Source: Candidatus Latescibacterota bacterium (GTDB lineage Bacteria; Latescibacterota; CBDEFO01). From it: DNA of 64,000 bases. The stretch spans positions 384,001 through 448,000 of the forward strand of contig CBDEFO010000003.1 of the NCBI GenBank assembly GCA_965237525.1, in the 5' to 3' direction. The notes under the pieces are model-generated. The model did not search any database and was not told the DNA's origin. It saw nothing but the letters and a program-made list of their open reading frames with translations. Shown piece by piece: positions 5,444-55,122 of the stretch (position 1 is the first letter of the stretch; each line of letters opens with the position of its first letter). The translations under genes were made by a program, and so were the position numbers.

Positions 5444-5633
5444 AGTAGACAGCATACAGGAAGAAAGGGTCTCAGTGAGATTGCTTCGGGGTGAACGCCC
5501 TCGCAATAACTCCGGTAAAGTAACGGTCATTGTGAATCGCCTACTACGGCCATCGCTAGTAGCTCCTCTGTGTCATTGCGACCCCGTCCGATGGAATCTA
5601 TCGGGGTTAGATCGGGGGAAGGGGAACGATCTC
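5444..5633. repeat. Composite repeat cassette with a nested 21-bp palindrome (5586-5606)
   Basis: AGTAGACAG, GAGATTGCTTCG..CTCGCAATAAC, TGTCATTGCGA..ATCTC. Confidence 0.7.
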
Positions 5634-5790
5634 ATGTAGGCTGTTTATCCCTGCATTGTGTCCGAAATATTTTGATCTGATACTTAGAATTCAGTATTAG
5701 AAGAGCCCAGTTGTTGCGGAATAATACAAATAGAATATCAAAACGTGACCCAGATCACAGACTTTGATTTTAGATATGCGTATCGTTCTG

Positions 5791-5819
5791 TTGACATTTC
5801 TTATGGGATCATGTATTCT
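5791..5819 (+). promoter_or_regulatory. Sigma70-type promoter, with a CRP/FNR-like site upstream at 5744-5759
   Basis: TTGACA-17bp-TATTCT; CGTGA-N6-TCACA. Confidence 0.6.
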
Positions 5820-6019
5820 TATTTATCTGTTTCCCCCTTCCAGCAGCGAAATCTCCCAAATTCAAGCGGGAGGTTAATTGCTGGTTGGGTAGATTAACTA
5901 TGTACAAATAGCTGCAGAAGGAAGTAGATAAAAGCGGATCAGCAACAACTACTAATGGTGCACGAACTTTCTTAATTTTTTTGTTTCTACCGATATTTCC
6001 ACAGTAAAGGAGAGCTTAA

Positions 6020-7538
6020 AAGCCTTGTGAAAAACCCTTAGATTCAGAAAGTAGTATAAAACAAGCATTGATAAAGCAGCTCCGATGTATTATATTATGT
6101 TATTGATAATATTATACATGGAGGAAACAATGACCCCACAAAAGCAGGAACAGACAAATCCGATGTTTCACTATTTTCAGATGGAGGATTTAGTTCCCGA
6201 GGATCATATCCTTCGTCAGATTGATGAGGCAGTTGATTTTTCATTTGTACGAGACGTTGTATCAGATTGTTATTGCCCTGACAATGGCAGACCCGGTATT
6301 GATCCTGAATTAGTTGTTCGAATGATCCTTATTGGCTATCTGTATAATTTGAGTGAGAATCGGCTCTGTCAGGAAGTGGGGATGCATGCGGCATATCGGT
6401 TGTTTTGTCATCAGACATTTGATGATGCGGTTCCGGATAGGAGCACGATCAACAAGCTTCGCAATCACAAGTGGGCATCCAGTGGGTTGTTTGAACGGAT
6501 AATGCGTCAGGTAGTCCAGTGTTGCATAGATGTCGGTCTTGTGAGCGGTAAACACCTTAGTGTCGACGGCACTCAGATACAAGCTGATGCTTCAGTGAAA
6601 AGTATTGAGCCGATAGAACCCCCTGTTTCTCTTGATGATTATCTCAAGGGAATCGGTTTTGAAGGTGATAAGACAAAGGGTAGGTCCGGGCATCCTCAGG
6701 ATAAAGACTTTCATGGTGAAAAGTGGACGAACCAAACACACCGTTCGACTACAGACCCCGACGCGCGCTTATACAGCAAATCGAAGGGCAAAGGGGCTTT
6801 TCTCTCGTTTATGGGCCATGATCTGATCGACACAAAAAGCAGAGTAATCCTTGAGACTCAGGGCACGCAGGCGACAGGGACAGCAGAGCCCGAAAGTGCC
6901 CTTAAGATGGTAGATGACCTTGAAACATACACCATGCCCAAAGACATTCAGACACTTAGTGCCGATACCGGTTACGGTTCTGGTAATTTTATCGCTGATG
7001 TACTTGACCGGGGAATCATACCCCATATTCCTCTGCGAGCCGATGAGAAGATTGAACCGATTCCTACATGGAAAAACAAGACAAATTCAGCACATATTCA
7101 GGCCGAACGGGATAGAAAAGTGCGAGAGGCGAAAGCCAGAAATCATGCACGGTCTATCTCATTAACAGCTGACTACAAACTCTCCCGGAGACTCCGTAAA
7201 CGCAGTGAACATATCTTTGCTGAAGCCAGGCAACAACACGGTATGGGACGAGCCCGTTACAGAGGACCAGCCTCACTGAATGAACAGTTGAATCTTGTTG
7301 CAACAGTACAGAATCTCAAGAGGCTTGTATCTTTCATAAGAAGGGGGAAAGCGTCTATGTGTGCCCTGTCTGTCAAAGACAGTGCATCCTGTTCTTCAAA
7401 CAGCTCCTGTTCCTTGCTGACCAGAACTCTGATAAGACTATTTTGCTTATTCCACAGCAAAACGATACGATATGCTACTCTTTGACCCATAATCGGCGCT
7501 TCAGACGCTGCCTGGGACATAACTATTTCACAAGGCTT
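6020..7538 (+). mobile_element. IS1182-family insertion sequence, copy 1 (1519 bp)
   Basis: Terminal IRs AAGCCTTGTGAAA/TTTCACAAGGCTT; TTAA target duplication; four near-identical copies in the window. Confidence 0.92.
6085..7485 (+). CDS. IS1182-family DDE transposase (likely start ATG 6130)
   Basis: LVPEDHILRQID..GRPGIDP (DUF772-like), VDGTQIQADAS, STTDPDARL, ADTGYGS, SEHIFAEARQQHG. Confidence 0.92.
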   Translation: MYYIMLLIILYMEETMTPQKQEQTNPMFHYFQMEDLVPEDHILRQIDEAVDFSFVRDVVSDCYCPDNGRPGIDPELVVRMILIGYLYNLSENRLCQEVGMHAAYRLFCHQTFDDAVPDRSTINKLRNHKWASSGLFERIMRQVVQCCIDVGLVSGKHLSVDGTQIQADASVKSIEPIEPPVSLDDYLKGIGFEGDKTKGRSGHPQDKDFHGEKWTNQTHRSTTDPDARLYSKSKGKGAFLSFMGHDLIDTKSRVILETQGTQATGTAEPESALKMVDDLETYTMPKDIQTLSADTGYGSGNFIADVLDRGIIPHIPLRADEKIEPIPTWKNKTNSAHIQAERDRKVREAKARNHARSISLTADYKLSRRLRKRSEHIFAEARQQHGMGRARYRGPASLNEQLNLVATVQNLKRLVSFIRRGKASMCALSVKDSASCSSNSSCSLLTRTLIRLFCLFHSKTIRYATL

Positions 7539-7541
7539 TTA

Positions 7542-8960
7542 ATGATGTTAAACTTACGAAAATCTGTTCTATCGCTGGCGGCTATTGCTTTTTTCTTCGG
7601 AATCGTTACGAGTGCTCACGCCCAACTGACCAACCCGAGCTTCGAGACAGGTGACCTAAAGGGTTGACACTCCTCTGGATCTGTCAAAGCCGTTAGGTTC
7701 GGTGGTGGCAATTACCCAAAAGACGGCAAGTACTTCGCCTTTCTCACGGCCAGTGTGTACGGTAGCACCATTTCGCAGACGTTCACGGCAAATGCGGGAG
7801 ACAAAATCTCAGGCTGGGCCTTCTTCAACGTTCAAAGCGGGTCGGCGCAGGTGCAGATCACAGAGAGCGGGTACAAGGGTATATTTAAAACCTCAATTAC
7901 GAGCCCTAAGTGGACCAGCTGGGAGTACAGGTTTAAGAAGAAGGGAAAGTACACCATAAAGGCGCTTCTCTCGCTCAAGAAGGGAGTCAAATTCAAGAAG
8001 GGCAGCGGCATGGGGTTGGACGGCCTTGTACTTGGCAGCGGGAACCGGCTACCGACGGCAGATGCTGGTCCAGACCAGAAGGTAGAATGCGCGGGTCCCG
8101 CAGGAACAAAGGTAACCCTGGACGGTTCGGGATCAAGCGATCCTGATAAGGATTATCTTAGGTACACCTGGAACGGATCCTTCGGGACGGTCACCGGCGC
8201 GAGTCCGACGGTTGCCCTCTCCCACGGCGCCCACGCCATCAAGCTTACGGTGGATGACGGCAAAGGCGGGAAGGATTCAGACAAGGTGACCATCACGATT
8301 ATGGACACTACGCCGCCGAAGATCAGCGTATCAGTGGACCCTGATGAACTGTGGCCGGCCAACCACAAGATGAAGACTATCACAGCTACCGTTACTGTGA
8401 CGGACATCTGCGATCCATCACCCGGCGTCGTGTTGACTACTATCGAAAGCGATGAACCGGACGGAGACTCTGACGCTATCCAGGCTGACAGCGGCACGGA
8501 CGATCGGGAGTTCCTGTTGCGTGCGGAGCGATCTGGAAACGGAGATGGACGGGTCTATACGATCACCTATACAGCGCAGGATGTGTCGGGGAACAGCAAC
8601 AGCGCATCGTCAACTGTGACGGTACCCCACGACAAGGGACAAGGGAAGGCGAAAGGAAGAGCGAAGGTGGCTCTAACGCCTGATACCTACAGCTTACAGC
8701 AGAACCATCCGAATCCGTTCAACCCTGAGACAATGATTGAGTATGCACTCCCGGCGGAAACACACATCCGATTGGTCGTGTACAACCAGATGGGTCAGAT
8801 TGTAAGAACACTGGTGGATGGTCACAGATCAGAAGGCAGCTACGCCATAGTCTGGGATGGCACGGACGATAGCGGAGAAGACCTCGCCAGCGGAATCTAT
8901 CTGTATCGGATAGAGGCGGATGGATTTGTGCAGACGAGGAAGATGACCTTAATGAGGTAG
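7542..8960 (+). pseudogene. Secreted PKD/Ig-domain protein with FlgD-type C-terminal domain; in-frame TGA at 7665-7667
   Basis: Signal peptide MMLNLRKSVLSLAAIAFFFGIVTSAHA, then NPSFETGDLKG*; the same frame continues into ORF 7755-8960 (ADAGPDQ..LDGSGSSDPD, WPANHKM, QNHPNPFNPET..LASGIYLYRI). Confidence 0.8.
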
Positions 8961-8998
8961 GCTCTTTGTCCCATCTCACACAAGCTCACAAAGTAACT

Positions 8999-9036
8999 AA
9001 CAGACAGCCCGTCAGAGATGGCGGGCTGTCTGTTTT
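8999..9036 (+). terminator. Rho-independent terminator
   Basis: CAGACAGCCCGTC-AGAGA-TGGCGGGCTGTCTG-TTTT downstream of the stop at 8960. Confidence 0.8.
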
Positions 9037-9056
9037 GTCATTCATAGGACTGCCCA

Positions 9057-10268
9057 TTGAGTCAGAGTGGCAAAACCGCATTGCAGGATTGTAACAACAA
9101 TTTCAAGACGTGCTTGAGGCTCTGGGCGCTACACAGTACTAGGAAGGCACACGGGATTATGCCAGCACAGAATAAGCTTATCATTCTAAAACCGATGAAT
9201 AAAACGAAAAGATCGATTTTCTACACTGTCCTGATGCTCTTTATCTCCTTGAATACACTTCTCTACACAGGGGATCTTTTCGGATCTCAGCTTGTGGGTG
9301 ATTTCGACGGAGACAATGACGTAGATCGTTCTGATTTTGTTCTTTTCGAGGATGTGTTTGGAACGACGTTCAGCTCAGCCGATTGGAATCCTGTGTTCGA
9401 TTTGGATGATGATGGCGAGATCAGTTTGTCCGACTTTTTGATCTTTGTGCATAACTTCGGCAAGAGTGTAGAGAAAAATGTCTCCGTCAAAACTGAAAAT
9501 CAAAGAACTATATTGTCTTTTCCCGACTATACCCTCGCGGTACAGTATGGCGAACCCGTTGGTATTGTTTCGCTTAAACTTACTGATCAGCAGACGGATT
9601 TTGTGCACCGGAACCTGCCCTTAGGAGACTGGGAATGGTTCAAGATAGATCTGAACGGTCGTCAGAAATGGCTAAAACTGATTATGCCTGAGTGGAGTAG
9701 CCCTGTTCTGAAAACATCTGGTGATCCTGTTGTCCTGAGGTTTGTCAGAGAGAACTCAATTGCGCCGGGCATCAGTCTGGGGGTCGAATATAACCTGAAT
9801 CGCGACAGACCAGAATTTGATATACACTATTCTATCAGCAATTCATCTGGAGAGACGCTCAGAAGCCCCTATGTGATGATCGGCTTTCCGGGATTCTCAA
9901 ATTACGAACAGGTATCCTCTGTTGAAACTGCGCTTGAAACCCGTGTCACCGCAAGCCCTTACACCAATTTCCGCGATGAGGCAATTGCGGTTAACAGAGC
10001 TGAATACCTGCTGTTGCGTCACAATGTGTCTCCTCGTTCAGGTTCCCTTGAGGTCCTAAAGGGAGTTGTCTCCATTAAAGAAGCCAGCCGTATCTTCACA
10101 CTGGAATCTTCTTTTGTGCCTGACAAGACATACAGTCAGGTCTACTCTGCCTATGTCAATAAACCTGCGTACTTGACGTGCCACATCTATGCCTTTCTCA
10201 CCGATATCCCTAATGGAGAAGAAAGAAGAATCACTATCCATTACACCGTCTATAAGAAAGAACCATAG
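9057..10268 (+). CDS. Secreted protein with N-terminal EF-hand/dockerin-like pair and an uncharacterised beta-rich domain (likely start ATG 9195)
   Basis: GDFDGDNDVDRSDF...FDLDDDGEISLSDFLIF after a hydrophobic signal segment. Confidence 0.75.
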   Translation: MSQSGKTALQDCNNNFKTCLRLWALHSTRKAHGIMPAQNKLIILKPMNKTKRSIFYTVLMLFISLNTLLYTGDLFGSQLVGDFDGDNDVDRSDFVLFEDVFGTTFSSADWNPVFDLDDDGEISLSDFLIFVHNFGKSVEKNVSVKTENQRTILSFPDYTLAVQYGEPVGIVSLKLTDQQTDFVHRNLPLGDWEWFKIDLNGRQKWLKLIMPEWSSPVLKTSGDPVVLRFVRENSIAPGISLGVEYNLNRDRPEFDIHYSISNSSGETLRSPYVMIGFPGFSNYEQVSSVETALETRVTASPYTNFRDEAIAVNRAEYLLLRHNVSPRSGSLEVLKGVVSIKEASRIFTLESSFVPDKTYSQVYSAYVNKPAYLTCHIYAFLTDIPNGEERRITIHYTVYKKEP

Positions 10269-10307
10269 GTAAGGGACAGATAAGGCAAGATTGCTTCGCC
10301 ACTTCCT

Positions 10308-11858
10308 TTATCTTCTCTCTCCGAAGTGGTCCAGAAAGACAACAAAGTCGCTGAGCTCTACTTTATCATCTCCATCGAGGTCGAATTTCTCGTCGAATGC
10401 GGTACCACCTAAGCTGGATCCGAAGGCATCAAGGAATAGAACAAAGTCAGCAAGTCCCACCTCGTCATCTTCGTTGAAATCCCCTATAATTTCAGGTACG
10501 TTCTTTACAACAATTCTCACAGAGTCGGATTGACTATCCGCTTCTCCATCGCTGACGACAAGTGTAAAGGTTAATACTAAAGTCTCCGCAACATCAGGAA
10601 GAATAAATGTGGGGCTCTGAATTGTTCGATCTGATAAAGTGACCACAGGGCCTGACACCTGACTCCAAAGATATGTCAAAATATCTCCATCAGGATCGCT
10701 GCTGCCCGAACCGTTCAAGACTACCCTGTCTCCCTCTCCTACTGTCTGATCCGGTCCAGCATTCGCTATGGGAGGCTTGTTGACATCGTTTACAGTAATG
10801 CTCACAGAGTCGGGCTGACTATCCACTTGTCCGTCGCTGACGACAAGCACAAACGTAAATATTAAAGTCTCCGCAACCTCAGGAAGAATAAATGTGGGGC
10901 TCTCGGTTGTTCTGTCTGATAAAGTGACCGAAGGTCCTGACATCTGACTCCAAAGATATGTTAACACATCTCCATCAGGATCGCTGCTGCCCGAACCGTC
11001 CAGAATCAACGTGTCCCTCTCGTCCACTCTCTGATCCACTCCAGCATTTGCTATTGGAGGCTTGTTGACATCGTTTACCGTAATGCTCACAGAGTCGGGC
11101 TGACTATCCGCTTGTCCGTCGCTGACGACAAGCACAAACGTAAATATTAAAGTCTCCGCAACCTCAGGAGCGACAAATGTCGGACTCTGAGCCGTATCGC
11201 TGGATAGTGTGACCGAAGGACCTGACATCTGACTCCAAAGATATGTCACAATATCTCCATCAGGATCGCTGCTGCCCGAACCGTCCAGAATCAATGTGTC
11301 TCCCTCGTTTACAGTGGTGTCTACGCCGGCGTATGCGGTGGGAAGCTCCGGGAAGAAGACCGTCCTGGTCAAAATTGAAACAGCGACTCCCCCTTCATTC
11401 ACCTCAAATCTATCGATCGTAAAGTTCCCGATGCCCTGGGGATCTATCACCTCGAAAGGAATTCGAAGGATCTCACCGGATCCCTCTATTGGAGAAGCCG
11501 AAGCAAATGCCACCTTTACTGCATTTCCGACAGTGTTTGGAAAAAACAGAAAGCTACCTGTTATTTCGTGGGTTATTTCGTCGGTTATTACATTGAACAC
11601 ATCGCTGCTGAATGTGATAAATATCTCGATAGAGTTTACACTGTCCTCCGGAGCGATAGTATCTACAACGACGGTGATGAATAAGGTGCTATCGGGCATC
11701 TCTTGAACAGGACCGAGACCGACGTTGATGTCGCCATAGGCAGTGTGTGCAGTCAAGATAACCAGGCCCATAGCAAAAGTGGACAAACCCGCAAAGATGA
11801 CCAAGACATTTTTGAATCTTTCCATAGATTCTGGTGCCGAGGGGAGATCCCGATTCAC
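10308..11858 (-). CDS. Cohesin-like domain + three PKD/REJ-like repeats + C-terminal dockerin-like domain
   Basis: VKVAFASASPIEGSGEILRIPF (cohesin-like); three 95-aa repeats with a 285-bp DNA period; GDFNEDDEVGLADF..FDLDGDDKVELSDF. Confidence 0.8.
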   Translation of the reverse strand: MNRDLPSAPESMERFKNVLVIFAGLSTFAMGLVILTAHTAYGDINVGLGPVQEMPDSTLFITVVVDTIAPEDSVNSIEIFITFSSDVFNVITDEITHEITGSFLFFPNTVGNAVKVAFASASPIEGSGEILRIPFEVIDPQGIGNFTIDRFEVNEGGVAVSILTRTVFFPELPTAYAGVDTTVNEGDTLILDGSGSSDPDGDIVTYLWSQMSGPSVTLSSDTAQSPTFVAPEVAETLIFTFVLVVSDGQADSQPDSVSITVNDVNKPPIANAGVDQRVDERDTLILDGSGSSDPDGDVLTYLWSQMSGPSVTLSDRTTESPTFILPEVAETLIFTFVLVVSDGQVDSQPDSVSITVNDVNKPPIANAGPDQTVGEGDRVVLNGSGSSDPDGDILTYLWSQVSGPVVTLSDRTIQSPTFILPDVAETLVLTFTLVVSDGEADSQSDSVRIVVKNVPEIIGDFNEDDEVGLADFVLFLDAFGSSLGGTAFDEKFDLDGDDKVELSDFVVFLDHFGERR

Positions 11859-12936: not shown

Positions 12937-13070
12937 CGGGGTAACGGGGTATTAGAGGAGGAGACGGCTGTGAATAAGATAAAGGAGAGCAAGACGAAAG
13001 CATTTAATGTCTTATCGTGCATAGCTGTTCTAATCTTGATCGGATGTGGTGATAGTGTCAAGGGATTAGA

Positions 13071-16019: not shown

Positions 16020-16172
16020 AATAAGTAGAAAAGGCACATGCTCTTCCCATGAGTTTGCTTCGGGTTTGGGACCTCGCAATAACCAAAAGCCGAAGATATG
16101 CACCGTCATTGCCATCCCCGAATGAAGCCCCAATAGATTCAATTGGGGGTCGGGGATGGCAAAGCAACCTCA
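16020..16172. repeat. REP-like cassette containing a 21-bp palindrome (16128-16148)
   Basis: TTGCTTCG..CTCGCAATAAC; GTCATTGCCATCCCCG..CGGGGATGGCAAAGCAACCTC. Confidence 0.7.
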
Positions 16173-19696: not shown

Positions 19697-21215
19697 AAGC
19701 CTTGTGAAATAGTTATGTCCCAGGCAGCGTCTGAAGCGCCGATTATGGGTCAAAGAGTAGCATATCGTATCGTTTTGCTGTGGAATAAGCAAAATAGTCT
19801 TATCAGAGTTCTGGTCAGCAAGGAACAGGAGCTGTTTGAAGAACAGGATGCACTGTCTTTGACAGACAGGGCACACATAGACGCTTTCCCCCTTCTTATG
19901 AAAGATACAAGCCTCTTGAGATTCTGTACTGTTGCAACAAGATTCAACTGTTCATTCAGTGAGGCTGGTCCTCTGTAACGGGCTCGTCCCATACCGTGTT
20001 GTTGCCTGGCTTCAGCAAAGATATGTTCACTGCGTTTACGGAGTCTCCGGGAGAGTTTGTAGTCAGCTGTTAATGAGATAGACCGTGCATGATTTCTGGC
20101 TTTCGCCTCTCGCACTTTTCTATCCCGTTCGGCCTGAATATGTGCTGAATTTGTCTTGTTTTTCCATGTAGGAATCGGTTCAATCTTCTCATCGGCTCGC
20201 AGAGGAATATGGGGTATGATTCCCCGGTCAAGTACATCAGCGATAAAATTACCAGAACCGTAACCGGTATCGGCACTAAGTGTCTGAATGTCTTTGGGCA
20301 TGGTGTATGTTTCAAGGTCATCTACCATCTTAAGGGCACTTTCGGGCTCTGCTGTCCCTGTCGCCTGCGTGCCCTGAGTCTCAAGGATTACTCTGCTTTT
20401 TGTGTCGATCAGATCATGGCCCATAAACGAGAGAAAAGCCCCTTTGCCCTTCGATTTGCTGTATAAGCGCGCGTCGGGGTCTGTAGTCGAACGGTGTGTT
20501 TGGTTCGTCCACTTTTCACCATGAAAGTCTTTATCCTGAGGATGCCCGGACCTACCCTTTGTCTTATCACCTTCAAAACCGATTCCCTTGAGATAATCAT
20601 CAAGAGAAACAGGGGGTTCTATCGGCTCAATACTTTTCACTGAAGCATCAGCTTGTATCTGAGTGCCGTCGACACTAAGGTGTTTACCGCTCACAAGACC
20701 GACATCTATGCAACACTGGACTACCTGACGCATTATCCGTTCAAACAACCCACTGGATGCCCACTTGTGATTGCGAAGCTTGTTGATCGTGCTCCTATCC
20801 GGAACCGCATCATCAAATGTCTGATGACAAAACAACCGATATGCCGCATGCATCCCCACTTCCTGACAGAGCCGATTCTCACTCAAATTATACAGATAGC
20901 CAATAAGGATCATTCGAACAACTAATTCAGGATCAATACCGGGTCTGCCATTGTCAGGGCAATAACAATCTGATACAACGTCTCGTACAAATGAAAAATC
21001 AACTGCCTCATCAATCTGACGAAGGATATGATCCTCGGGAACTAAATCCTCCATCTGAAAATAGTGAAACATCGGATTTGTCTGTTCCTGCTTTTGTGGG
21101 GTCATTGTTTCCTCCATGTATAATATTATCAATAACATAATATAATACATCGGAGCTGCTTTATCAATGCTTGTTCTATACTACTTTCTGAATCTAAGGG
21201 TTTTTCACAAGGCTT
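19697..21215 (-). mobile_element. IS1182-family IS, copy 2 (transposase 19750-21150)
   Basis: Same IRs and length as copy 1; flanks AAAA / TTAG, so no matching duplication. Confidence 0.92.
19750..21150 (-). CDS. IS1182-family transposase
   Basis: Protein identical to that of 6085-7485. Confidence 0.92.
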   Translation of the reverse strand: MYYIMLLIILYMEETMTPQKQEQTNPMFHYFQMEDLVPEDHILRQIDEAVDFSFVRDVVSDCYCPDNGRPGIDPELVVRMILIGYLYNLSENRLCQEVGMHAAYRLFCHQTFDDAVPDRSTINKLRNHKWASSGLFERIMRQVVQCCIDVGLVSGKHLSVDGTQIQADASVKSIEPIEPPVSLDDYLKGIGFEGDKTKGRSGHPQDKDFHGEKWTNQTHRSTTDPDARLYSKSKGKGAFLSFMGHDLIDTKSRVILETQGTQATGTAEPESALKMVDDLETYTMPKDIQTLSADTGYGSGNFIADVLDRGIIPHIPLRADEKIEPIPTWKNKTNSAHIQAERDRKVREAKARNHARSISLTADYKLSRRLRKRSEHIFAEARQQHGMGRARYRGPASLNEQLNLVATVQNLKRLVSFIRRGKASMCALSVKDSASCSSNSSCSLLTRTLIRLFCLFHSKTIRYATL

Positions 21216-21459: not shown

Positions 21460-22978
21460 AAGCCTTGTGAAATAGTTATGTCCCAGGCAGCGTCTGAAGC
21501 GCCGATTATGGGTCAAAGAGTAGCATATCGTATCGTTTTGCTGTGGAATAAGCAAAATAGTCTTATCAGAGTTCTGGTCAGCAAGGAACAGGAGCTGTTT
21601 GAAGAACAGGATGCACTGTCTTTGACAGACAGGGCACACATAGACGCTTTCCCCCTTCTTATGAAAGATACAAGCCTCTTGAGATTCTGTACTGTTGCAA
21701 CAAGATTCAACTGTTCATTCAGTGAGGCTGGTCCTCTATAACGGGCTCGTCCCATACCGTGTTGTTGCCTGGCTTCAGCAAAGATATGTTCACTGCGTTT
21801 ACGGAGTCTCCGGGAGAGTTTGTAGTCAGCTGTTAATGAGATAGACCGTGCATGATTTCTGGCTTTCGCCTCTCGCACTTTTCTATCCCGTTCGGCCTGA
21901 ATATGTGCTGAATTTGTCTTGTTTTTCCATGTAGGAATCGGTTCAATCTTCTCATCGGCTCGCAGAGGAATATGGGGTATGATTCCCCGGTCAAGTACAT
22001 CAGCGATAAAATTACCAGAACCGTAACCGGTATCGGCACTAAGTGTCTGAATGTCTTTGGGCATGGTGTATGTTTCAAGGTCATCTACCATCTTAAGGGC
22101 ACTTTCGGGCTCTGCTGTCCCTGTCGCCTGCGTGCCCTGAGTCTCAAGGATTACTCTGCTTTTTGTGTCGATCAGATCATGGCCCATAAACGAGAGAAAA
22201 GCCCCTTTGCCCTTCGATTTGCTGTATAAGCGCGCGTCGGGGTCTGTAGTCGAACGGTGTGTTTGGTTCGTCCACTTTTCACCATGAAAGTCTTTATCCT
22301 GAGGATGCCCGGACCTACCCTTTGTCTTATCACCTTCAAAACCGATTCCCTTGAGATAATCATCAAGAGAAACAGGGGGTTCTATCGGCTCAATACTTTT
22401 CACTGAAGCATCAGCTTGTATCTGAGTGCCGTCGACACTAAGGTGTTTACCGCTCACAAGACCGACATCTATGCAACACTGGACTACCTGACGCATTATC
22501 CGTTCAAACAACCCACTGGATGCCCACTTGTGATTGCGAAGCTTGTTGATCGTGCTCCTATCCGGAACCGCATCATCAAATGTCTGATGACAAAACAACC
22601 GATATGCCGCATGCATCCCCACTTCCTGACAGAGCTGATTCTCACTCAAATTATACAGATAGCCAATAAGGATCATTCGAACAACTAATTCAGGATCAAT
22701 ACCGGGTCTGCCATTGTCAGGGCAATAACAATCTGATACAACGTCTCGTACAAATGAAAAATCAACTGCCTCATCAATCTGACGAAGGATATGATCCTCG
22801 GGAACTAAATCCTCCATCTGAAAATAGTGAAACATCGGATTTGTCTGTTCCTGCTTTTGTGGGGTCATTGTTTCCTCCATGTATAATATTATCAATAACA
22901 TAATATAATACATCGGAGCTGCTTTATCAATGCTTGTTCTATACTACTTTCTGAATCTAAGGGTTTTTCACAAGGCTT
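21460..22978 (-). mobile_element. IS1182-family IS, copy 3
   Basis: 1519 bp, TTAG target duplication on both sides. Confidence 0.92.
21513..22913 (-). CDS. IS1182-family transposase
   Basis: One R>Q change versus copy 1. Confidence 0.92.
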   Translation of the reverse strand: MYYIMLLIILYMEETMTPQKQEQTNPMFHYFQMEDLVPEDHILRQIDEAVDFSFVRDVVSDCYCPDNGRPGIDPELVVRMILIGYLYNLSENQLCQEVGMHAAYRLFCHQTFDDAVPDRSTINKLRNHKWASSGLFERIMRQVVQCCIDVGLVSGKHLSVDGTQIQADASVKSIEPIEPPVSLDDYLKGIGFEGDKTKGRSGHPQDKDFHGEKWTNQTHRSTTDPDARLYSKSKGKGAFLSFMGHDLIDTKSRVILETQGTQATGTAEPESALKMVDDLETYTMPKDIQTLSADTGYGSGNFIADVLDRGIIPHIPLRADEKIEPIPTWKNKTNSAHIQAERDRKVREAKARNHARSISLTADYKLSRRLRKRSEHIFAEARQQHGMGRARYRGPASLNEQLNLVATVQNLKRLVSFIRRGKASMCALSVKDSASCSSNSSCSLLTRTLIRLFCLFHSKTIRYATL

Positions 22979-23681: not shown

Positions 23682-23875
23682 ACAGCAAACAGGTGGTGGA
23701 TAGGGAGATTGCTCCGGGATGAATCTCCTCGCAATAGACGTTGCCTACTTTTGCCTTCGGTCATTTCGACTCGCCGATTGAATCTTTCGGGGAAGCCCAG
23801 AGCAAAGCGGAAGAGTCAGTGAAGCAATGTCCGAGACAGGCTATAGGGGGGAGAATACCCCGCCTACAGTCTACT
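23677..23875. repeat. Composite repeat cassette with a nested 21-bp palindrome (23772-23792)
   Basis: AGTAGACAG...AGTCTACT ends; GAGATTGCTCCG..CTCGCAATAG; GTCATTTCGA..GTGAAGCAATG. Confidence 0.75.
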
Positions 23876-31348: not shown

Positions 31349-33124
31349 ATGGAGAAAAGCTATTTCAAACTTTACATAAGGCTCGTAAAGGAATTCCTAC
31401 TTCCATATTGGAAGGCTATAGTCACAGCGCTTGTGTGTATGTTCTGTATATCGGGGCTGAACGTGATTCCGGCTCTGTCGGTAAAGTTTCTGATCGACGA
31501 TATTATTCCCGATAAGGATTTGACTTTGCTCGGTCTCCTTGCCGGGGCTCTTGTTGTAGCCTATACTTTGAGGGCTATCACCGAGTTCGGTCAGGATTAT
31601 CTAGCTCACAGGGTCGCCGAACTAGTGATGTTCGATCTGAGGGTGCAGGTATACGGACACATTCAAAAGCTTTCGTCTAATTTCTTCAGGAACAGGCGCA
31701 CAGGTGAGATCATGTCGAGGATAATCAACGACATCGATTCTCTAAGGGATATGTTAGCTCACAGCGGTGATGCCATTGTAACTCAGAGTTTGAATGTTTT
31801 AGTCGTGGCTGCGGTTCTTTTCACACTCCAATGGAAACTTGCGCTCTTTACGTTGATTCCAATTCCTCTCACTATCATTTTGGTCCTCTACTTTAATAAG
31901 GCTGTGCGTCAGGTGTACCAAAATGTGCGGGAAAAACTTGCGGACGTAAACGCAAGGCTTCTGGATAACTTATCGGGGATAGAGGTTATAAAGTCGTTTG
32001 TAATGGAGAGGCGGGAATTGAACAGATTTGCAGCGGAGAGCAAAGACTATTTCAATGAAAATATGGTAGCTATAAAGCTATGGGCATATATATTTCCGAC
32101 TATGATATTTGTCGTGGGTATTGGATCAGTGATAGTGATTTGGTACGGCGGAGGTCAGGTTATAAGTGGGGAGCTTACTGTGGGTAGCCTTGTAGCGTTT
32201 TCGGCTTTGGCTTGGAGGCTGTACTGGCCCCTTATGGACCTAGGTAGAGAGAACGAGAAGATTCAAAAGGCGATGGCGGCTGTGAAGAGGATATTTGAGC
32301 TTTTAGATACCGAGCCTGAGATAAAGGACTCGCCTTCTGCGGTGGAGCTTACCCACCCCCGATTGAATCTATCGGGTGTTAAAGGGGAGATTGAGTTCCG
32401 TGGAGTCTCGTTCGCGTACGACAGGGATTGCGTTCTCAAAAATATACATCTGAAGATCGAGCCTGGGGAAATCATCGCACTTGTGGGTCCAAGCGGTGTG
32501 GGAAAGACTACTCTGGCGGGATTGATCCCGAGGTTCTACGATCCCGATGAGGGCACGGTTTCGATATACGGTATAGACATTAAAGGGATAAAGCTTGAGT
32601 CCTTGAGGAGCAATATCGGGATTGTGCATCAAGAGACGTTCCTTTTCAATGGGACGATAGCAGAAAACGTAGGCTACGGGAAGATAAGTGCCTCTTTAGA
32701 CGAGGTAGTTGAAGCTGCAAAGGCGGCGAATATATACGATTTTGTATCCGAACTCCCCGATGGGTTTGACACTGTGGTGGGAGAAAGAGGAGTCAAACTT
32801 TCGGGGGGACAGAAGCAGAGGATAGCTATCGCAAGGGCTATTTTGAAGGACCCACCCATACTGATTTTAGATGAGGCGACTTCATCTGTAGATACCGAGT
32901 CGGAACAGCTTATACAGCAGAGCTTGTCTCTCCTTTTGAAGGATAGGATGACCCTCATAATCGCTCACAGGTTAGCTACGATCAAGTCAGCCCACAGGAT
33001 AGTGGTCTTAAAGGATGGAGAGATAGAGGAGATAGGGTCTCATTTTGAACTGATAGAGAACGGCGGCGCGTACAGACGTCTCTACGAGGCGCAGTTCGGC
33101 AGCCGAGAAGCGGTGGTGGAGTAG
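31349..33124 (+). CDS. ABC exporter, permease + ATPase (MsbA-like)
   Basis: Six-TM domain, GPSGVGKT, LSGGQKQR, DEATS; carries a 7-aa palindrome-derived insert. Confidence 0.95.
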   Translation: MEKSYFKLYIRLVKEFLLPYWKAIVTALVCMFCISGLNVIPALSVKFLIDDIIPDKDLTLLGLLAGALVVAYTLRAITEFGQDYLAHRVAELVMFDLRVQVYGHIQKLSSNFFRNRRTGEIMSRIINDIDSLRDMLAHSGDAIVTQSLNVLVVAAVLFTLQWKLALFTLIPIPLTIILVLYFNKAVRQVYQNVREKLADVNARLLDNLSGIEVIKSFVMERRELNRFAAESKDYFNENMVAIKLWAYIFPTMIFVVGIGSVIVIWYGGGQVISGELTVGSLVAFSALAWRLYWPLMDLGRENEKIQKAMAAVKRIFELLDTEPEIKDSPSAVELTHPRLNLSGVKGEIEFRGVSFAYDRDCVLKNIHLKIEPGEIIALVGPSGVGKTTLAGLIPRFYDPDEGTVSIYGIDIKGIKLESLRSNIGIVHQETFLFNGTIAENVGYGKISASLDEVVEAAKAANIYDFVSELPDGFDTVVGERGVKLSGGQKQRIAIARAILKDPPILILDEATSSVDTESEQLIQQSLSLLLKDRMTLIIAHRLATIKSAHRIVVLKDGEIEEIGSHFELIENGGAYRRLYEAQFGSREAVVE

Positions 33125-39539: not shown

Positions 39540-39720
39540 GAAGATTAAGATGTAGTGGCATAACGTGTGGCCACTGCAAGCAGACGGTGCGGGAGGAATT
39601 GCCGGGGCAACAAAAAGGTCGTAGGTGACCTTGCCATCCCTGATCGATTCTATCGGGGAAGAACCTTTTGGGGGACAAAGGAATTGGAGGTCTTAAAAAA
39701 AGCCGTGGCAGATGATAAAA
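39540..39720 (+). pseudogene. HMA/CopZ-like metal chaperone remnant
   Basis: SGITCGHCKQTV motif; LEVLKKAV in another frame; 21-bp palindrome at 39638. Confidence 0.55.
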
Positions 39721-40990: not shown

Positions 40991-41755
40991 TTATAAGTGG
41001 AAGGAGATTTTCGTGGCGATGGTTGAAGCGCCACTCGACCTCTTTAAGATAAAGGTAGAAGTAGTTCTTGTCAACACCTCCCCGATAGAATCAATCGGGG
41101 ATCGCTGGTAAAGCCAGTGTTTGGCATATGACCAGAAGCCTTCCACTGCATTGAGGTGATCTTTTCCTTTAGCTATGCCCTTCTCTTTTGGAACTACCAC
41201 GTGGTTGCCGCTGATAGAAAGGGGGGCATAGGCTATCCAATTATCGGTGCAATACAAGCTCCCTTGTCTGGTGTGTTGGGCAATAAGAGGAAGCAGTGAC
41301 TATCGACTCCTTGAACAGACAGGGAAGGTCAACACCCTACCTTTTCTCTGATATATCCCAAAGACTATCTGCTTGCCATAAGCACCCCAACCTATCTTAG
41401 CAGATCTTCTACCACCAAAGAGAGTCTCATCCATCTCAAGTTCACCTTCAAGGGGTTCAAACTCCCCGAAAGTGTGGTGGTAGATCGCCTTTCTGATGAT
41501 CCGATACCAGCGCTCCATCCCCGATAGAATCAATCGGGGACCTGTCCTTGTGTATGGAATCTGGAATCGCACCCCCGATAGGTTCAATCGGGAGGAGATA
41601 TTCGAGTCTTCTGCCAGAAGGTGGTGGTCAGTTTCCTGGTCGATCCCCAATTGAGTCTATTGGGGATGAATTTACACTTACGACAGCGTAACTGATCAGT
41701 CTTGAGTAGCCAAAATTTTCTTCCCCTGCAGCTAGGTCAATTTTTCTACTGCATT
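40991..41755 (-). pseudogene. IS1595-family transposase pseudogene containing four 21-bp palindromes
   Basis: Zn-ribbon remnant, EMDETLFGG, KQIVFGIYQR, YCTDNW, HLNAVEGFWSYAK, YLKEVEWRFNHR in shifted frames. Confidence 0.85.
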
Positions 41756-48280: not shown

Positions 48281-49048
48281 ATTGTGGTTGTTATTCAGAA
48301 TGGCCTGGACAGCATTTTTTGCAGGCTCAACCAGGGCCTTTTATGATGGAATTTCCCCCATTTACGAATCGACCTTTCTGAATCACATTGTCCATGTTGA
48401 AAATATCGTAGCTCTTCTTGCAAGTACATTTTCTTGGATGGAGGGATTCATCGTACTTGACTTGGGGTGTGGAACCGGCTTACTGAGCAAGGCTCTATCC
48501 AGAGAAGGATTCCGCGCGATTGGCATGGACATTTCCCTGCAATCACTCCAGATTATGCAGCAGAGTGATCAAGGAGTGTCCTTGATCCATGGCGATGCAA
48601 AGTCTATCCCGTTTTCAGGCTGTAGCTTCCAGGCTATCGTCTGCCTGGGTGTCTGGCGTCATCTTCCTCATCCAGAGATAGTTCTCGATGAAATCTGCCG
48701 TGTGCTCGGCGAAGACGGGAATTTCGTCCTGGGATACTTCCCTCCGAAGCTCGGTGGACTCTTTCATATCCCGGACAACCCTTTGGGAAGAATGCTGGCG
48801 TGGTCATACAAAAAAACGGTCGTTGGTTCGGCTATGATGATCTGCTCGATCTTGACCTTGAAGAGCAAGCGTGGCAGGCCATTAGCAATAGGTTTGACCA
48901 AGTCCACAGAATAGAATCCGGAAAGCACTGGCACTTGATCCTAGCACATCACCCACTACCGGTTTGTGAGCAAGGGACTGGTATTGACGGGTTATTCACC
49001 GCCGACAATGCACACATCAAGCTGAATCGACTCTATCCACAATCTTAA
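48258..49048 (+). pseudogene. Class I SAM-dependent methyltransferase, frameshifted near the A-run at ~48810
   Basis: VLDLGCGTG; the C-terminus continues in ORF 48800-49048. Confidence 0.7.
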
Positions 49049-49329
49049 CTGTCAAAGAGGACTAACCTTTGTGCCAGTGCAATATGAACTGTGTATATCT
49101 GTAACACTGTTATCTCCTCCTTCTTCTCGGCTCTTCTGCCTCTGCCACAATCCGATCAATTTTAGCTAACAAATCTTCCTTATACCAGCTATCCCTCAAC
49201 AACTGCTTAAAGCTGGGACTCTTTTGAATACTCTTTCGTATATTCCTAAAGTATAGACTTTCTTTTGTTCTCAGGTGGAAGATTCTTGATATACTGGATA
49301 ATTGTCTCAAAGCTGCTGTAATAAAATGT

Positions 49330-50678
49330 GGTTCTTCTTCAAAAAGTGTAGTTATTGACGGAAGTAGTTTTTTGAGAATTTAATATTGAAAGGCATCTGT
49401 CTTTTCCTGTATAGTTTATAGTAGTAAGAACAAACAAATACAGGTAGGGGGGACAGGATGCCTGGTGACATCAGAGCAGAATGGCTTAATCTGCCAGCTG
49501 AAGATTGAAAGACTTGACTTTGTTGATTCTTATTCCCGATGCACTACCAGATTTGAGGAACTTGTAGCCAGACTCTGCCGAATAACCAGCCTGAAGCAAG
49601 TAGCCGAACTCCTTGAGTTGGACTGGAAGACAGTCAAAGCAATTGACAAGAAGTTCCTGGAGAAACAGTTCTCCATTCCAGACTACGACGGCTTAAGGAT
49701 TCTAGCAGTAGATGAGATAGCTTCCCATAAAGGCCATAACTACTTTACGGTCGTTATGGATCTAGAGCAAACCCGGGTAGTCTGGGTCGGCAAAGGTCGA
49801 ACTCAAGAAACCCTGGATCGGTTTTTCAAAGAACTCGGTCCACAAAGGAGCAAGCAAATAGAGGCAGTAGCCTGTGATATGTGGGACCCATACATCGCCT
49901 CTATCAAGGAGCACGCTCCAGGGGCCAAAACAGTATTTGACAAATTCCACGTCATCAAAAACTACTCCAGGATCATAGATAAAGTCAGAAATATCGAGTT
50001 TAAGAAAGCTACCGAACAGAACAAAGAGGCCATCAAAGGCACTAAGTACCTCCTACTTAAGAATCGACATAAACTCAATAATGATCAGAAAGAGCAACTT
50101 TGCAGATTGCTTGAGTTAAACCAGAACATAAACATCGCCTATATGCTCAAGGACGATCTTAAAAGGCTCTGGAATTATAAATCTGCCGGCTGGGCTAATC
50201 CCCAATTGATTCTATTGGGGATGCCTTGACTGTTGGGTTAGCACCGCCGTAGCCAGTAGTATCAAACCCCTTATGAAATTTGCTCAGACCCTGGATAACT
50301 ATCGTTACGGTCTTATTAACCACTGCTATTACCCCATCAACACTGGCAAATTAGAAGGAATGAATAACAAGATCAAAGTCATTAAGCGCATTGCCTATGG
50401 ATTTCACGATGACGACTACTTTATCCTGAAGATCAAACAAGGATGCTCAGCCCCATCGGATACTGAATAGCTAAAATAAAGTTCTATTGCCCAAAGAGAT
50501 CGGATTCAATGTTGATATTGATCCAAGCCATAAACCTTTGACTTAACCACATTGTTACAATCCCTGAAGCGAGCCTACAATCCCTTCATTATTTACCTAT
50601 TACCACTATTAACTTGTACAAAAACTCAAGAGACCATGAAACAGAATTACCCGCTACTACACTTTTTGGAGAAGATCC
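49330..50678 (+). mobile_element. ISL3-family element, defective
   Basis: IRs GGTTCTTCTTCAAAAAGTGTAG / CTACACTTTTTGGAGAAGATCC; transposase LAVDE, CDMW, FDKFHV, EGMNNKIK; N-terminal deletion and palindrome-associated frameshift at 50200. Confidence 0.88.
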
Positions 50679-51111
50679 AGATTATTCAGCTTGAGGAACA
50701 GAAGGAACAATTAGATAGGGAGAACCTAGATATTGATCTGCTAATAGAGGAAGCAAAAAGGAAAGTCGCCAACGCATCTGTAATGAAGAATACATTGACG
50801 ACTTTTGCTGAGCTCTACTTGGAAACAACTCCAGAGGAGAAAAAGCAGTTGATGCAAATGCACATCAATGAACTTTTATGGACGCCCACCAAAATAAAGC
50901 TAGCTCTATTTGAAAACCCCACTGAAATCCCACCTATTGCCCTGCCCACAACCTAGAAAGTTTCAGTGAGAGCTACAGTCTGGCACCCCGGGATGATGTC
51001 CCAAAGCGTACTTTTGTGGGATGAGTCAAAGCTGGAAATGAAACGAGTAGCAGCAGGTCACACCAGAATCAGTCTTCTTCCTCAGGATAGCCCCGTACAA
51101 AGCTCCGCTTA
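50679..51111 (+). pseudogene. Large serine recombinase C-terminal remnant
   Basis: Coiled coil, then F.ELY...TPEEKKQLMQ..I..L.W....IKLAL; truncated by ISL3; internal TAG. Confidence 0.5.
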
Positions 51112-51618
51112 ACTCTTTCTACTCATACGGGAACACTCAGCAACCTTTTCCTTCCGGTCGTCTTCTAAAAATATCTTGCACAAAAGCTCAGCCAGTATTA
51201 AAACAGAGGCTGTCAGAAATGGATCTCTTTCGTTTTGGTAATTAGCGATAGGTATAATTAAAGCAAAGCTTCGGCCCGTTCGTAACAAACTTTACATATC
51301 CTTTTGTAGTATTTGTAGAATAGTGGACAAATAATAAAGAATTGTAAAATATAAAGATATAATCGCAAACAATTTGACAAAGATTTAGAATTTGCATATA
51401 TTGATGGCAATAGCTTTTGCGGTGTTTCCATATCCTGATCCGAGCAAAAAGCAGGTTGGTGGTAAGGCAATGGATCGGATTTGATCGGTACAAAGTCCAT
51501 GCTCGTTTTGAAAAGATTATTTATCAGCTCGGATTATTTCTCCAAAACGCTTATTGCATCGAAAGGTCTTATCAGATTGTAGCTAAATTGTTGCTGATGT
51601 AAAATATCTAATCACTAG

Positions 51619-53137
51619 AAGCCTTGTGAAATAGTTATGTCCCAGGCAGCGTCTGAAGCGCCGATTATGGGTCAAAGAGTAGCATATCGTATCGTTTTGC
51701 TGTGGAATAAGCAAAATAGTCTTATCAGAGTTCTGGTCAGCAAGGAATAGGAGCTGTTTGAAGAACAGGATGCACTGTCTTTGACAGACAGGGCACACAT
51801 AGACGCTTTCCCCCTTCTTATGAAAGATACAAGCCTCTTGAGATTCTGTACTGTTGCAACAAGATTCAACTGTTCATTCAGTGAGGCTGGTCCTCTGTAA
51901 CGGGCTCGTCCCATACCGTGTTGTTGCCTGGCTTCAGCAAAGATATGTTCACTGCGTTTACGGAGTCTCCGGGAGAGTTTGTAGTCAGCTGTTAATGAGA
52001 TAGACCGTGCATGATTTCTGGCTTTCGCCTCTCGCACTTTTCTATCCCGTTCGGCCTGAATATGTGCTGAATTTGTCTTGTTTTTCCATGTAGGAATCGG
52101 TTCAATCTTCTCATCGGCTCGCAGAGGAATATGGGGTATGATTCCCCGGTCAAGTACATCAGCGATAAAATTACCAGAACCGTAACCGGTATCGGCACTA
52201 AGTGTCTGAATGTCTTTGGGCATGGTGTATGTTTCAAGGTCATCTACCATCTTAAGGGCACTTTCGGGCTCTGCTGTCCCTGTCGCCTGCGTGCCCTGAG
52301 TCTCAAGGATTACTCTGCTTTTTGTGTCGATCAGATCATGGCCCATAAACGAGAGAAAAGCCCCTTTGCCCTTCGATTTGCTGTATAAGCGCGCGTCGGG
52401 GTCTGTAGTCGAACGGTGTGTTTGGTTCGTCCACTTTTCACCATGAAAGTCTTTATCCTGAGGATGCCCGGACCTACCCTTTGTCTTATCACCTTCAAAA
52501 CCGATTCCCTTGAGATAATCATCAAGAGAAACAGGGGGTTCTATCGGCTCAATACTTTTCACTGAAGCATCAGCTTGTATCTGAGTGCCGTCGACACTAA
52601 GGTGTTTACCGCTCACAACACCGACATCTATGCAACACTGGACTACCTGACGCATTATCCGTTCAAACAACCCACTGGATGCCCACTTGTGATTGCGAAG
52701 CTTGTTGATCGTGCTCCTATCCGGAACCGCATCATCAAATGTCTGATGACAAAACAACCGATATGCCGCATGCATCCCCACTTCCTGACAGAGCCGATTC
52801 TCACTCAAATTATACAGATAGCCAATAAGGATCATTCGAACAACTAATTCAGGATCAATACCGGGTCTGCCATTGTCAGGGCAATAACAATCTGATACAA
52901 CGTCTCGTACAAATGAAAAATCAACTGCCTCATCAATCTGACGAAGGATATGATCCTCGGGAACTAAATCCTCCATCTGAAAATAGTGAAACATCGGATT
53001 TGTCTGTTCCTGCTCTTGTGGGGTCATTGTTTCCTCCATGTATAATATTATCAATAACATAATATAATACATCGGAGCTGCTTTATCAATGCTTGTTCTA
53101 TACTACTTTCTGAATCTAAGGGTTTTTCACAAGGCTT
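51619..53137 (-). mobile_element. IS1182-family IS, copy 4
   Basis: 1519 bp; flanks CTAG / TTAA do not match. Confidence 0.92.
51672..53072 (-). CDS. IS1182-family transposase
   Basis: Three amino-acid changes versus copy 1 (K>E, L>V, C>Y). Confidence 0.92.
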   Translation of the reverse strand: MYYIMLLIILYMEETMTPQEQEQTNPMFHYFQMEDLVPEDHILRQIDEAVDFSFVRDVVSDCYCPDNGRPGIDPELVVRMILIGYLYNLSENRLCQEVGMHAAYRLFCHQTFDDAVPDRSTINKLRNHKWASSGLFERIMRQVVQCCIDVGVVSGKHLSVDGTQIQADASVKSIEPIEPPVSLDDYLKGIGFEGDKTKGRSGHPQDKDFHGEKWTNQTHRSTTDPDARLYSKSKGKGAFLSFMGHDLIDTKSRVILETQGTQATGTAEPESALKMVDDLETYTMPKDIQTLSADTGYGSGNFIADVLDRGIIPHIPLRADEKIEPIPTWKNKTNSAHIQAERDRKVREAKARNHARSISLTADYKLSRRLRKRSEHIFAEARQQHGMGRARYRGPASLNEQLNLVATVQNLKRLVSFIRRGKASMCALSVKDSASCSSNSSYSLLTRTLIRLFCLFHSKTIRYATL

Positions 53138-53402
53138 TTAAGAGCCCCGCCATAAAGACGGATAAGCTGTCCATTTTGGGGAGGAGTACATCAAGTTTGG
53201 AAAGATAAAAATCCCATTTGAAAAATCTGAGGGCGTAATTAAAAACAGAAAACAGAAGGATCAGTGGAAGGTATATCCAGTGGAAGGCCTTAAAGGCTAC
53301 TATTATTCTATGATAGTCAAAGTGGAGGCTAATAGCGATAAAGACTATCACTCCCAAGCACAAGGATAGGGCGATCTTTCTTTTGAGTCTTCGAAACATC
53401 AT
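53138..53402 (-). pseudogene. UPF0104/lysylphosphatidylglycerol-synthase TM-domain protein truncated by IS
   Basis: LFSVFNYALRFFKWDFYL..SLSVFMAGL runs directly into the IS end. Confidence 0.75.
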
Positions 53403-53407
53403 TATTA

Positions 53408-53571
53408 AGTAGACACAAACATAGACAGTATACGGAGGGGAAAGACTCGGACCGAGATTGCTTCGCTGGCCCCTTGCTTTGCTCGGGGCTTCAGCTCGCA
53501 ATGACCAAGAGTCCGAATCCTGGAAGCAATCCCCGATTGAGTCTATCGGGGACCGGGGGCTACTGTCTAGT
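53408..53571. repeat. Composite repeat cassette with a nested 21-bp palindrome (53531-53551)
   Basis: AGTAGACA...CTGTCTAGT; GAGATTGCTTCG..CTCGCAATGAC. Confidence 0.75.
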
Positions 53572-55011
53572 TGGTTTTAGTCTCCACAGGTATACGACCA
53601 ACACTGCGCCGAACGTGATCGTAATGATAGGAAGTACATATCTTATGTCAAAGAGGGAATCCCGGCCGCCAATTTCCCGGTATTTCTTTCTGGCAAAGAG
53701 CGTCCATTCTAATATGCTCCTGTTCCTAAATTTGGCATCTTTCCACTTCCTGCGGGCAAGATCAAATAATTCGTCTTCGCTAAGGGGCATACGGGAGAGT
53801 CTTTCTCTTGATTCTTCCTTGGGCGGTCCATCCTTCAGGATAGATTTCCAGGCCCTTACCAGATCGCCGTGCGAATCTATGATCATTACTCCGATAAGGT
53901 CGTTGAGTATGCTCCATCTTTCCGATCCTCTGCCGGAGTCGTAGGTTAGACTCGACTTCATTTCGAAGGGGTTTATATAGACGGAGTTGTAGGCCTTCTT
54001 TCGATCATAGAGTTTTGGGGTGACGGCAAGTCTGTTGAGTTGAAAGTCCATCGGGCCACCGGGAGTACCTTTTTTGTAGAACCATATCTTCTGTCCCTTC
54101 TCCGAAAGGACAAAGTCAATGAACTTCCCCGCAAGCTTTGGGTTGGGTGCTCCCTTTAGCATGGCTATTCCGTCGGGATTGACGACTGTGAGCCCCTCGG
54201 GCATTACGTAGCCAATTTTGTCCCGTCCGACCCGATTAATTGTGGACGTAGCGTAAAAGTCTATAGCCAGGCCGTACGCCGCATCACCTGTGGACACCTC
54301 TTTTAGCGTCTGCCCTGAGCCCTTCACAAAGTTTCTTACGTTGGCCCCCATACAGGTTATGACCTGCCATCCCTTATCCCATCCGTAGGCCTGGAGGATG
54401 ATCTCGTACATCATATGGACGCTTCCGCTATTTCTGGGATCTGCGGAGCTTACCCAGGTCAAAAGGGGAGGATCTGTCAGATCCTCCCACGCCTTGGGTT
54501 CGGGCAACTTCATTATATCCAGTACTTTTTTGTTGTAGATTATACCGAATCCAGCAAGGGCGGCGCCGTACCATCTGTATTGGGGGTCATATACGGGGAC
54601 CCCGGCGACAGTCTTGCCCACTCTGTCTAAGATCTTATCGGGAACCTTATATGGCTGGAGGAGTTCCAGTCGGGCAAGTTCCCAAAAGGGATCGGTTCCC
54701 CCGCCGAACAAGAGATCGACACCGATACCGTCGGGGTTTTGGGAGAATTCGGACTTGACAAATTTCAAAATGTCGGAGGTCCCTCCCACATCGAGCCATT
54801 CTATCTCCATGCCCTCATAAGCCTCTTTGAACGCCCTTTCAAATTCGTGCTCTATCCCTTCCCAGTGAGGGGAAATTATGATAATTCTCTCCTCAGAAGA
54901 CGAAATATCCGCTCCAGAAAGAGTAAACGCAAGCGCGGTGAAGAGGGCAATGTGGAAGATGTGCGTATTCACACGATAGATTAAGTAGAGGGAAAGCCTA
55001 AGGCAGCTCAC
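53560..55011 (-). CDS. ABC transporter substrate-binding protein (Fe3+/thiamine type) with C-terminal TM anchor
   Basis: IISPH, DLLFGGG, ADPRNSGS, PDGIAMLKGAPN. Confidence 0.85.
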   Translation of the reverse strand: MSCLRLSLYLIYRVNTHIFHIALFTALAFTLSGADISSSEERIIIISPHWEGIEHEFERAFKEAYEGMEIEWLDVGGTSDILKFVKSEFSQNPDGIGVDLLFGGGTDPFWELARLELLQPYKVPDKILDRVGKTVAGVPVYDPQYRWYGAALAGFGIIYNKKVLDIMKLPEPKAWEDLTDPPLLTWVSSADPRNSGSVHMMYEIILQAYGWDKGWQVITCMGANVRNFVKGSGQTLKEVSTGDAAYGLAIDFYATSTINRVGRDKIGYVMPEGLTVVNPDGIAMLKGAPNPKLAGKFIDFVLSEKGQKIWFYKKGTPGGPMDFQLNRLAVTPKLYDRKKAYNSVYINPFEMKSSLTYDSGRGSERWSILNDLIGVMIIDSHGDLVRAWKSILKDGPPKEESRERLSRMPLSEDELFDLARRKWKDAKFRNRSILEWTLFARKKYREIGGRDSLFDIRYVLPIITITFGAVLVVYLWRLKPTRQ

Positions 55012-55122
55012 AAGCAGGACGAGGCAGTCTAATGGAGATTGCTTCGCCCACTTCGTGGCTTGCCCCCGATAGATTCAATCGGGACTCAAGGGATAGGAGG
55101 AGGTACTCTGTCTACTGTTCTG

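Follow-up and report, generated by a model that had tools for sequence, protein, structure and literature searches.

Analysis of a 64,000-nucleotide stretch of a Candidatus Latescibacterota genome (the window) shows that a short palindrome scattered along it is a mobile, non-autonomous 23-nt hairpin, many copies of which were gained after the split from a sister species. The window corresponds to G000:C3:384001-448000 of its source genome (G000; 4.58 Mb, 8 contigs), which was compared with a same-genus sister genome (G001; 4.54 Mb, ~95% identical to G000) over 2.0 Mb. A first-pass annotation had listed 12 copies of a 21-bp palindrome in the window and likened it to a minimal mobile element. 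All 12 copies sit at the coordinates given, 11 of them within 2 mismatches of the motif and the one at 5586 with 3, and a search allowing up to 4 mismatches revealed no further copy in the window; for the 11 matches at ≤2 mismatches the mean expected by chance was 0.01 (100 shuffles). Genome-wide, G000 holds 233, 411, 542 and 598 copies at 0, 1, 2 and 3 mismatches, respectively, versus 0, 0, 0–1 and 1–2 in two order-5 Markov controls. Copies occur on all 8 contigs and, as annotated, in both orientations (295 and 303). The T:T mismatch at positions 8/14 is kept in 553 of the 598 copies while the central base varies, and both strands can form a hairpin of 8 bp with a loop of 7 nt (~-8 kcal/mol). 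At stem positions 5/17, 11 of 11 double changes are complementary, and the paired G:C>A:T change reported for the copies at 16128, 41645 and 50200 was verified.

Filled and empty sites were compared at strictly matched positions, in which both flanks aligned over ≥120 bases at ≥88% identity (some such pairs may be paralogues). For 134 G000 sites matched to G001, 62 were of the same length, 26 differed by +17 to +22, 7 by +26/27 and 39 by other lengths; the corresponding numbers for 113 G001 sites matched to G000 were 54, 11, 4 and 44. After merging, these comparisons gave 48 distinct events at +17 to +28 (36 short, 11 long and one of +24). Empty orthologous sites therefore exist, which supports the mobility proposed in the annotation and contradicts the alternative, stated there, that relatives would all carry the motif. 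An older copy of the hairpin was itself the target in 9 of the 36 short events (self-insertion). Pure deletion of the filled form could account for 3 of 31 clean short events, at least 2 changes being required in 24; because pure deletion fits so few, the filled state is mostly derived and the events are mostly gains. In the window, the copy at 16128 is a gain that entered an older copy, and its site is crossed by a sister-species contig (run X6) with 20 gap positions; the copies at 41080 and 41519 have empty paralogues. Among 481 distinct gaps of 8–80 bases between the sister genomes, 74 add a hairpin copy. Copies shared by both genomes diverge like their flanks (3.6%, 47/1302, versus 3.7%, 97/2604), consistent with neutral decay and no selection on the sequence after insertion. 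Contigs of other sequencing runs from near-identical strains, which break at repeats and are blind to rare variants, yielded no empty allele.

The moving unit proved longer than the 21 nt first described. Positions -1 and +22 carry complementary bases (TA in 213 and CG in 143 of 451 contexts; covariation z 20.9 across 180 independent sites), which differ between filled and empty forms at 37 of 62 ends. This paired covariation, together with the filled/empty differences, assigns both bases to the element, which thus spans 23 nt, Y-CCCCGATTGANTCTATCGGGG-R. A clean 21-bp insertion was rejected. The 23-nt unit usually replaces 2–6 target bases: in the short class (net +17 to +22) the number replaced was 4 in 14 cases, 3 in 7, 5 in 5, 6 in 3 and 2 in 2. 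The long class adds 26–27 nt and includes one 4-nt tail, either as a 3–4-bp duplication or as foreign bases. The absence of a consistent target duplication, as annotated, was mostly borne out; it does not extend to 13 of 180 independent sites, where 4-bp duplications were found (null mean 1.85). Nor is the element codon-multiple, contrary to what the annotation had supposed: outside genes, 23 of 38 events were +19 or +20, and the +18 or +27 lengths of all 6 events inside genes reflect survivors, not codon-multiple insertion. Partial-arm duplications of 9–12 nt were observed, and the loop was inverted in 1 of 72 orthologous pairs. Opposite loop orientations at one insertion site, in paralogues or orthologues, were seen for the window copy at 41573 and for G000:C8:1387677.

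Just outside the unit, YYNR-Y is found on both strands (46% left, 41% right, background 5.8%), the two sides being independent, and no flank signal extends beyond 5 bases. For that reason, the competing reading named in the annotation, that the motif ends a longer insertion sequence (IS), was rejected, and an artefact was rejected because the hairpin occurs in independent genomes. Empty sites fit YYNR in 24 of 62 cases and filled sites in 21 of 62. At positions 2–5, filled and empty forms mismatch in 14, 11, 9 and 5 of 62 ends (39/248) versus 49/930 further out (P 4e-7), and the profile is flat in 61 shared-copy controls. Unrelated sites had both tails in common beyond shuffled expectation at 3 bases (22 v 11.2 pairs, P 0.0095) and at 4 bases (6 v 1.5, P 0.0055). 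In addition, the element's own 4-mers account for 69 of 164 YYNR tails (27.9% expected), in keeping with a donor role for self-nested copies. The 2–4 bases adjoining the unit are thus frequently altered too and show weak co-inheritance, which points to a hairpin whose short tails are patched in through microhomology.

Copies are mostly singlets, with a median spacing of 3.7 kb. They lie deep in long open reading frames (ORFs) in 55 of 598 cases, versus 57% of random sites, and their density is lowest in divergent spacers (3.25 vs 4.8 per 10 kb). Comparison with Rfam gave no match apart from a tRNA, no exact match was found in viral contigs, and there was no GANTC bias (1.04). The copies in the window are listed below. 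Five of the six copies that the annotation had placed in dead genes were confirmed there (four in an IS1595-like remnant, one where a truncated ISL3 gene ends), the remaining one, at 39638, being without a paralogue; the single in-frame copy in an intact gene, at 32357, was also confirmed, and the ABC transporter linker that holds it is ~6 residues longer than in solved homologues.

Copies of the hairpin in the window (REP, repetitive extragenic palindrome; TMD and NBD, transmembrane and nucleotide-binding domains; positions are those of the window)
Feature	Position	Strand	Context and sister genome
Worn copy, 3 mismatches	5586..5606	+	Nested in older copy within CGTC-type REP; also in G001
23-nt unit	16127..16149	-	Inserted into older copy within REP hairpin; G001 site without unit, net +19
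Worn copy	23772..23792	+	Within intergenic REP-like repeat; orthologue not found in the 2.0 Mb of G001 compared
In-frame copy, peptide PRLNLSG	32357..32377	+	TMD-NBD linker of ABC transporter 31349-33124; also in G001
Intergenic copy	39638..39658	+	Between MatE and phosphotransferase genes; also in G001
Copy in decayed IS1595-like transposase	41080..41100	-	Absent from paralogues, net ~+20
Copy in IS1595-like remnant	41519..41539	-	Absent from paralogues, net +21
Copy in IS1595-like remnant	41573..41593	-	
A:T-variant copy in IS1595-like remnant	41645..41665	+	
A:T-variant copy	50200..50220	+	End of truncated ISL3 transposase ORF 49465-50229
Copy 3' of solute-binding-protein gene	53531..53551	+	Beside heptamer-type repeat; two copies at this site in G001
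Intergenic copy in another repeat	55064..55084	-	G001: additional 12-nt arm here

Several other repeats accompany the element. A sister hairpin of 17 nt, which shares the stem but has a loop of 3 nt, is present genome-wide in ~20 copies and serves both as target and as insert; the units of a tandem array at G000:C8:1858387-1859361 carry the 23-nt hairpin; and G000 holds GTAG-type REP families as well as a REP doublet (31–33 copies) that carries it. An IS1182/IS5-like element whose inverted repeats end in TTAA occupies window positions 6016-7542, 19750-21150, 21513-22913 and 51672-53072. It underwent a recent burst in G000, with 113 full copies there (92–99.9% identical) versus 11 matches in 2 Mb of G001. 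The annotation had found its copies in the window free of the hairpin, and genome-wide this is nearly so (212 kb of this IS contain 2 copies, versus ~13 per 100 kb overall).

Among 40 relatives searched, G001 was the sole carrier (394 copies), and with a looser core 168 genomes of the phylum yielded 279 copies in G000, 254 in G001 and one each in two others. Among the matches listed, the exact 21-mer was also found in records titled Deltaproteobacteria, Thermodesulfobacteriota and one Nanoarchaeia contig (36, 10, 6, 8 and 1 copies); it was present in 14 of 81 genomes of the deltaproteobacterial class. DNA was examined for 80 of 120 metagenome loci; the contigs with the exact 21-mer range from 36 to 68% GC, and none had a megablast match to G000. 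This patchy, letter-identical occurrence suggests horizontal transfer.

No enzyme is encoded in the hairpin, as annotated, and searches of G000 and G001 found no mobiliser: both genomes were negative for Y1 transposase (PF01797) and Cas1, G000 was negative for reverse transcriptase (the search for which covered that genome only), and no four-helix-bundle IVP was found. Paralogue families near copies consisted of IS remnants and repeats only, the 20 ORFs examined out of 60 bracketed by two copies encode ordinary or unknown proteins, and ORFs beside 51 foreign contexts showed no link to a mobiliser. Nor was a link found to IS110: the single IS110-family gene (G000:C8:1207682-1208800) is absent at the matching G001 site and ends at a heptamer-type repeat, and one worn hairpin copy lies 166 bases upstream.

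One small GIY-YIG gene of the Ssn type is present in G000 (L157:3836-4159, equivalent to G000:C4:479836-480159, minus strand), between two NTS-like hairpins and inside a locally duplicated stretch. Passages of Chenal 2025 (PMC11893778) describe the same arrangement for Ssn single-stranded DNA (ssDNA) nucleases, and report that the cut made by SsnA in ssDNA lies immediately upstream of hairpins of this sort and requires the tag bases and the C after the palindrome. Among 30 Ssn loci of the deltaproteobacterial class, L314 and L296 have tagged hairpins on their flanks, with 21-nt cores that differ from the element by 2–4 substitutions and keep the same T:T; the Ssn homologue is frameshifted at L314 and intact at L296 (70% identical). 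The untagged element itself was found at 0 of 31 Ssn loci, two or more of which are flanked by its tagged relatives. A further genome, G044, contains two tagged cores one substitution from the element and equal to minor G000 variants. Of 14 carriers, 12 have the tagged form, as do 10 of 67 non-carriers, counts in which kin are not independent and patterns overlap. The tag GTCAT is present on 1 of the 598 G000 copies and on none in G001. The published degenerate SRM motif matches 0 of 598 copies, and it also misses the Ssn-flanking hairpins of L157, L296 and L314. Judged by these sequence relationships, the element probably branched off from a CGTC REP and lost the tag, a direction of descent that we infer.

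With belief and doubt in equal measure, we favour movement of the 23-nt unit as a single-stranded hairpin with loosely pairing tails of ~4 nt, usually replacing 2–6 target bases. A donor copy would be released from ssDNA by a hairpin-recognising nuclease, its tails would pair loosely with the target through microhomology, and the resulting patch would replace target bases. Pairing of both tails would give a net +17 to +22 and pairing of one tail +26 or +27, and host repair or replication would fix the patch. The element probably originated when a CGTC-tagged REP/SRM hairpin lost its fixed tag, so that the tail came to occupy the tag position. As the most likely cutter we tentatively propose a GIY-YIG nuclease of the Ssn type that would act in trans, perhaps transiently. 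No less tentative is the broader picture of a 27–31-nt single-stranded 'oligo-transposon', in which a tag-shed REP core would use inherited 4-nt tails for patch recombination and so spread both inside a genome and from phylum to phylum, without a transposase of its own.

A number of observations weigh against this account. Other length differences, outside the individually analysed events, make up 83 of the 247 strict pairs; neither an intermediate nor an enzyme nor an event in progress was observed; and no strand bias was found, whether relative to GC skew (207 v 206) or to the direction of transcription (147 v 145). Tail sharing was not significant at 1, 2 or 5 bases, several tests having been run. 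Tail bases that changed did so toward YYNR in 3 cases and away from it in 4, and toward commoner tails in 14 v 12, and a best-donor search gave 13.5 matched bases v 11.3 under the null, a slight excess that is confounded by repeats. As to the proposed cutter, the element is without the tag bases and the C after the palindrome that SsnA requires, the hairpin flanking the G000 Ssn gene differs from it, and no small GIY-YIG gene was found in G001. Furthermore, Ssn homologues do not co-occur with the element (5 of 14 carriers, 23 of 67 non-carriers; P=1.0) and lie near 0 of 51 foreign contexts.

The main rival needs no dedicated enzyme: in template switching or short-patch conversion, a nascent strand would jump to a hairpin copy via 3–5-base homology and back. 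Ragged junctions, arm duplications, loop inversion and instant paired changes are typical of polymerase switching, and ragged junctions, the 9–12-nt partial-arm duplications, occasional loop inversion and the paired stem 5/17 changes were all seen here, in two near-complete genomes without a mobiliser. However, a single sequence with the T:T kept dominates, other G000 hairpins do not spread in this way, the sharp +26/27 class suggests a donor with defined ends, and letter-identical copies exist in other phyla, so that we regard switching as unlikely, if still a serious contender. A Y1/HUH transposase (RAYT or IS200-type), since lost from the genus, might instead have cut and pasted the hairpin beside a recognised tetranucleotide, which would agree with the kept stem mismatch, with joins 3' of a tetranucleotide (TTGA commonest), with the GTAG-type REPs of G000, which imply a past RAYT, and with the Y1 genes in 4 of 4 deltaproteobacterial carriers. 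We consider this improbable: the RAYT/HUH link suggested in the annotation is not supported, as neither G000 nor G001 has a PF01797 match and the hairpin is at 0 of 10 Y1 loci from carriers, and HUH insertion is precise and one-sided whereas insertions here are two-sided, with target bases deleted.

More doubtful again is a DDE transposase or integrase that pastes the 23-mer as a minimal miniature inverted-repeat transposable element (MITE). The 4-bp duplications and the many IS families of G000 speak for it; however, target bases were deleted in 36 of 48 events, which largely refutes this reading for the main class, the abundant IS has unrelated ends, and there is no Cas1. Neither IS-shared terminal repeats nor a fixed target duplication, the marks of a MITE, were found when the most abundant IS and one IS110 were inspected. 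Finally, a protein-binding site under selection, which the annotation had also raised as a competing reading, or a selected terminator would suit a stable, mostly intergenic palindrome, but it is hardly credible for copies that diverge at the flank rate, are sparsest in divergent spacers, sit in dead genes and in frame, and come and go.

These comparisons identify a variant hairpin of the kind represented by cyanobacterial small dispersed repeats (SDRs) and CGTC REPs, and the annotation's 'undescribed system' was too strong a term for an element that resembles SDRs and is related in sequence to CGTC-tagged REP/SRM hairpins. SDR1-8 of Nostocaceae, which Elhai et al. are said to have described in 2008, are reportedly 21–27-nt hairpins with filled and empty contexts, usually without target duplication; they are also said to be nested in other repeats and heptamer repeats and to insert peptides in frame, by a mobiliser reported as unknown. 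By description, not by sequence, the present element is like them in size, hairpin form, filled/empty contexts, mostly absent duplication, nesting and in-frame insertions. Unlike SDRs, it occurs in other host phyla, replaces target bases and alters flanks, has the same tail preference at both ends, self-inserts and shows sequence kinship with a tagged REP already known.

With CGTC REP/SRM hairpins it shares core length, stem and T:T, at 1–4 substitutions from Ssn-flanking tagged cores, but it is without the CGTC/TGTC tag or CCA tail, is mostly found as singlets and flanks no Ssn gene, and its mobility is demonstrated here by empty sites; for CGTC REPs, the parts of Di Nocera 2013 (PMC3733652) that treat them name no dedicated transposase as known. 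GTAG REPs and REPINs, as outlined in sections of Bertels and Rainey 2011 (PMC3116915), are likewise short, non-autonomous, high-copy, extragenic hairpins with a likely ssDNA route; unlike them, the hairpin moves here singly and not as a doublet, and it has neither a GTAG tag nor a RAYT in G000 or G001. Like Rickettsia palindromic elements, as portrayed in passages of PMC3733652, it can sit in frame in genes that still work (55 cases here). It is much shorter than those elements, however, and its in-frame cases are a filtered minority. A literature search, which did not extend to most subscription papers or any supplements, found no description of this hairpin sequence.

PMC3733652 poses the question of how tiny repeats that lack a transposase (SDRs, CGTC REPs, SRMs) spread, and PMC11893778 raises it again. 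The 48 before-and-after junctions, the target rule and the link to Ssn-associated hairpins make the route of spread testable. The hairpin also writes loops of 6–9 residues into working proteins and can mislead annotation. If the picture of an 'oligo-transposon' is true, the element would rank with the smallest of mobile DNAs, and it would show how transposase-less CGTC REPs and SDR-like repeats multiply.

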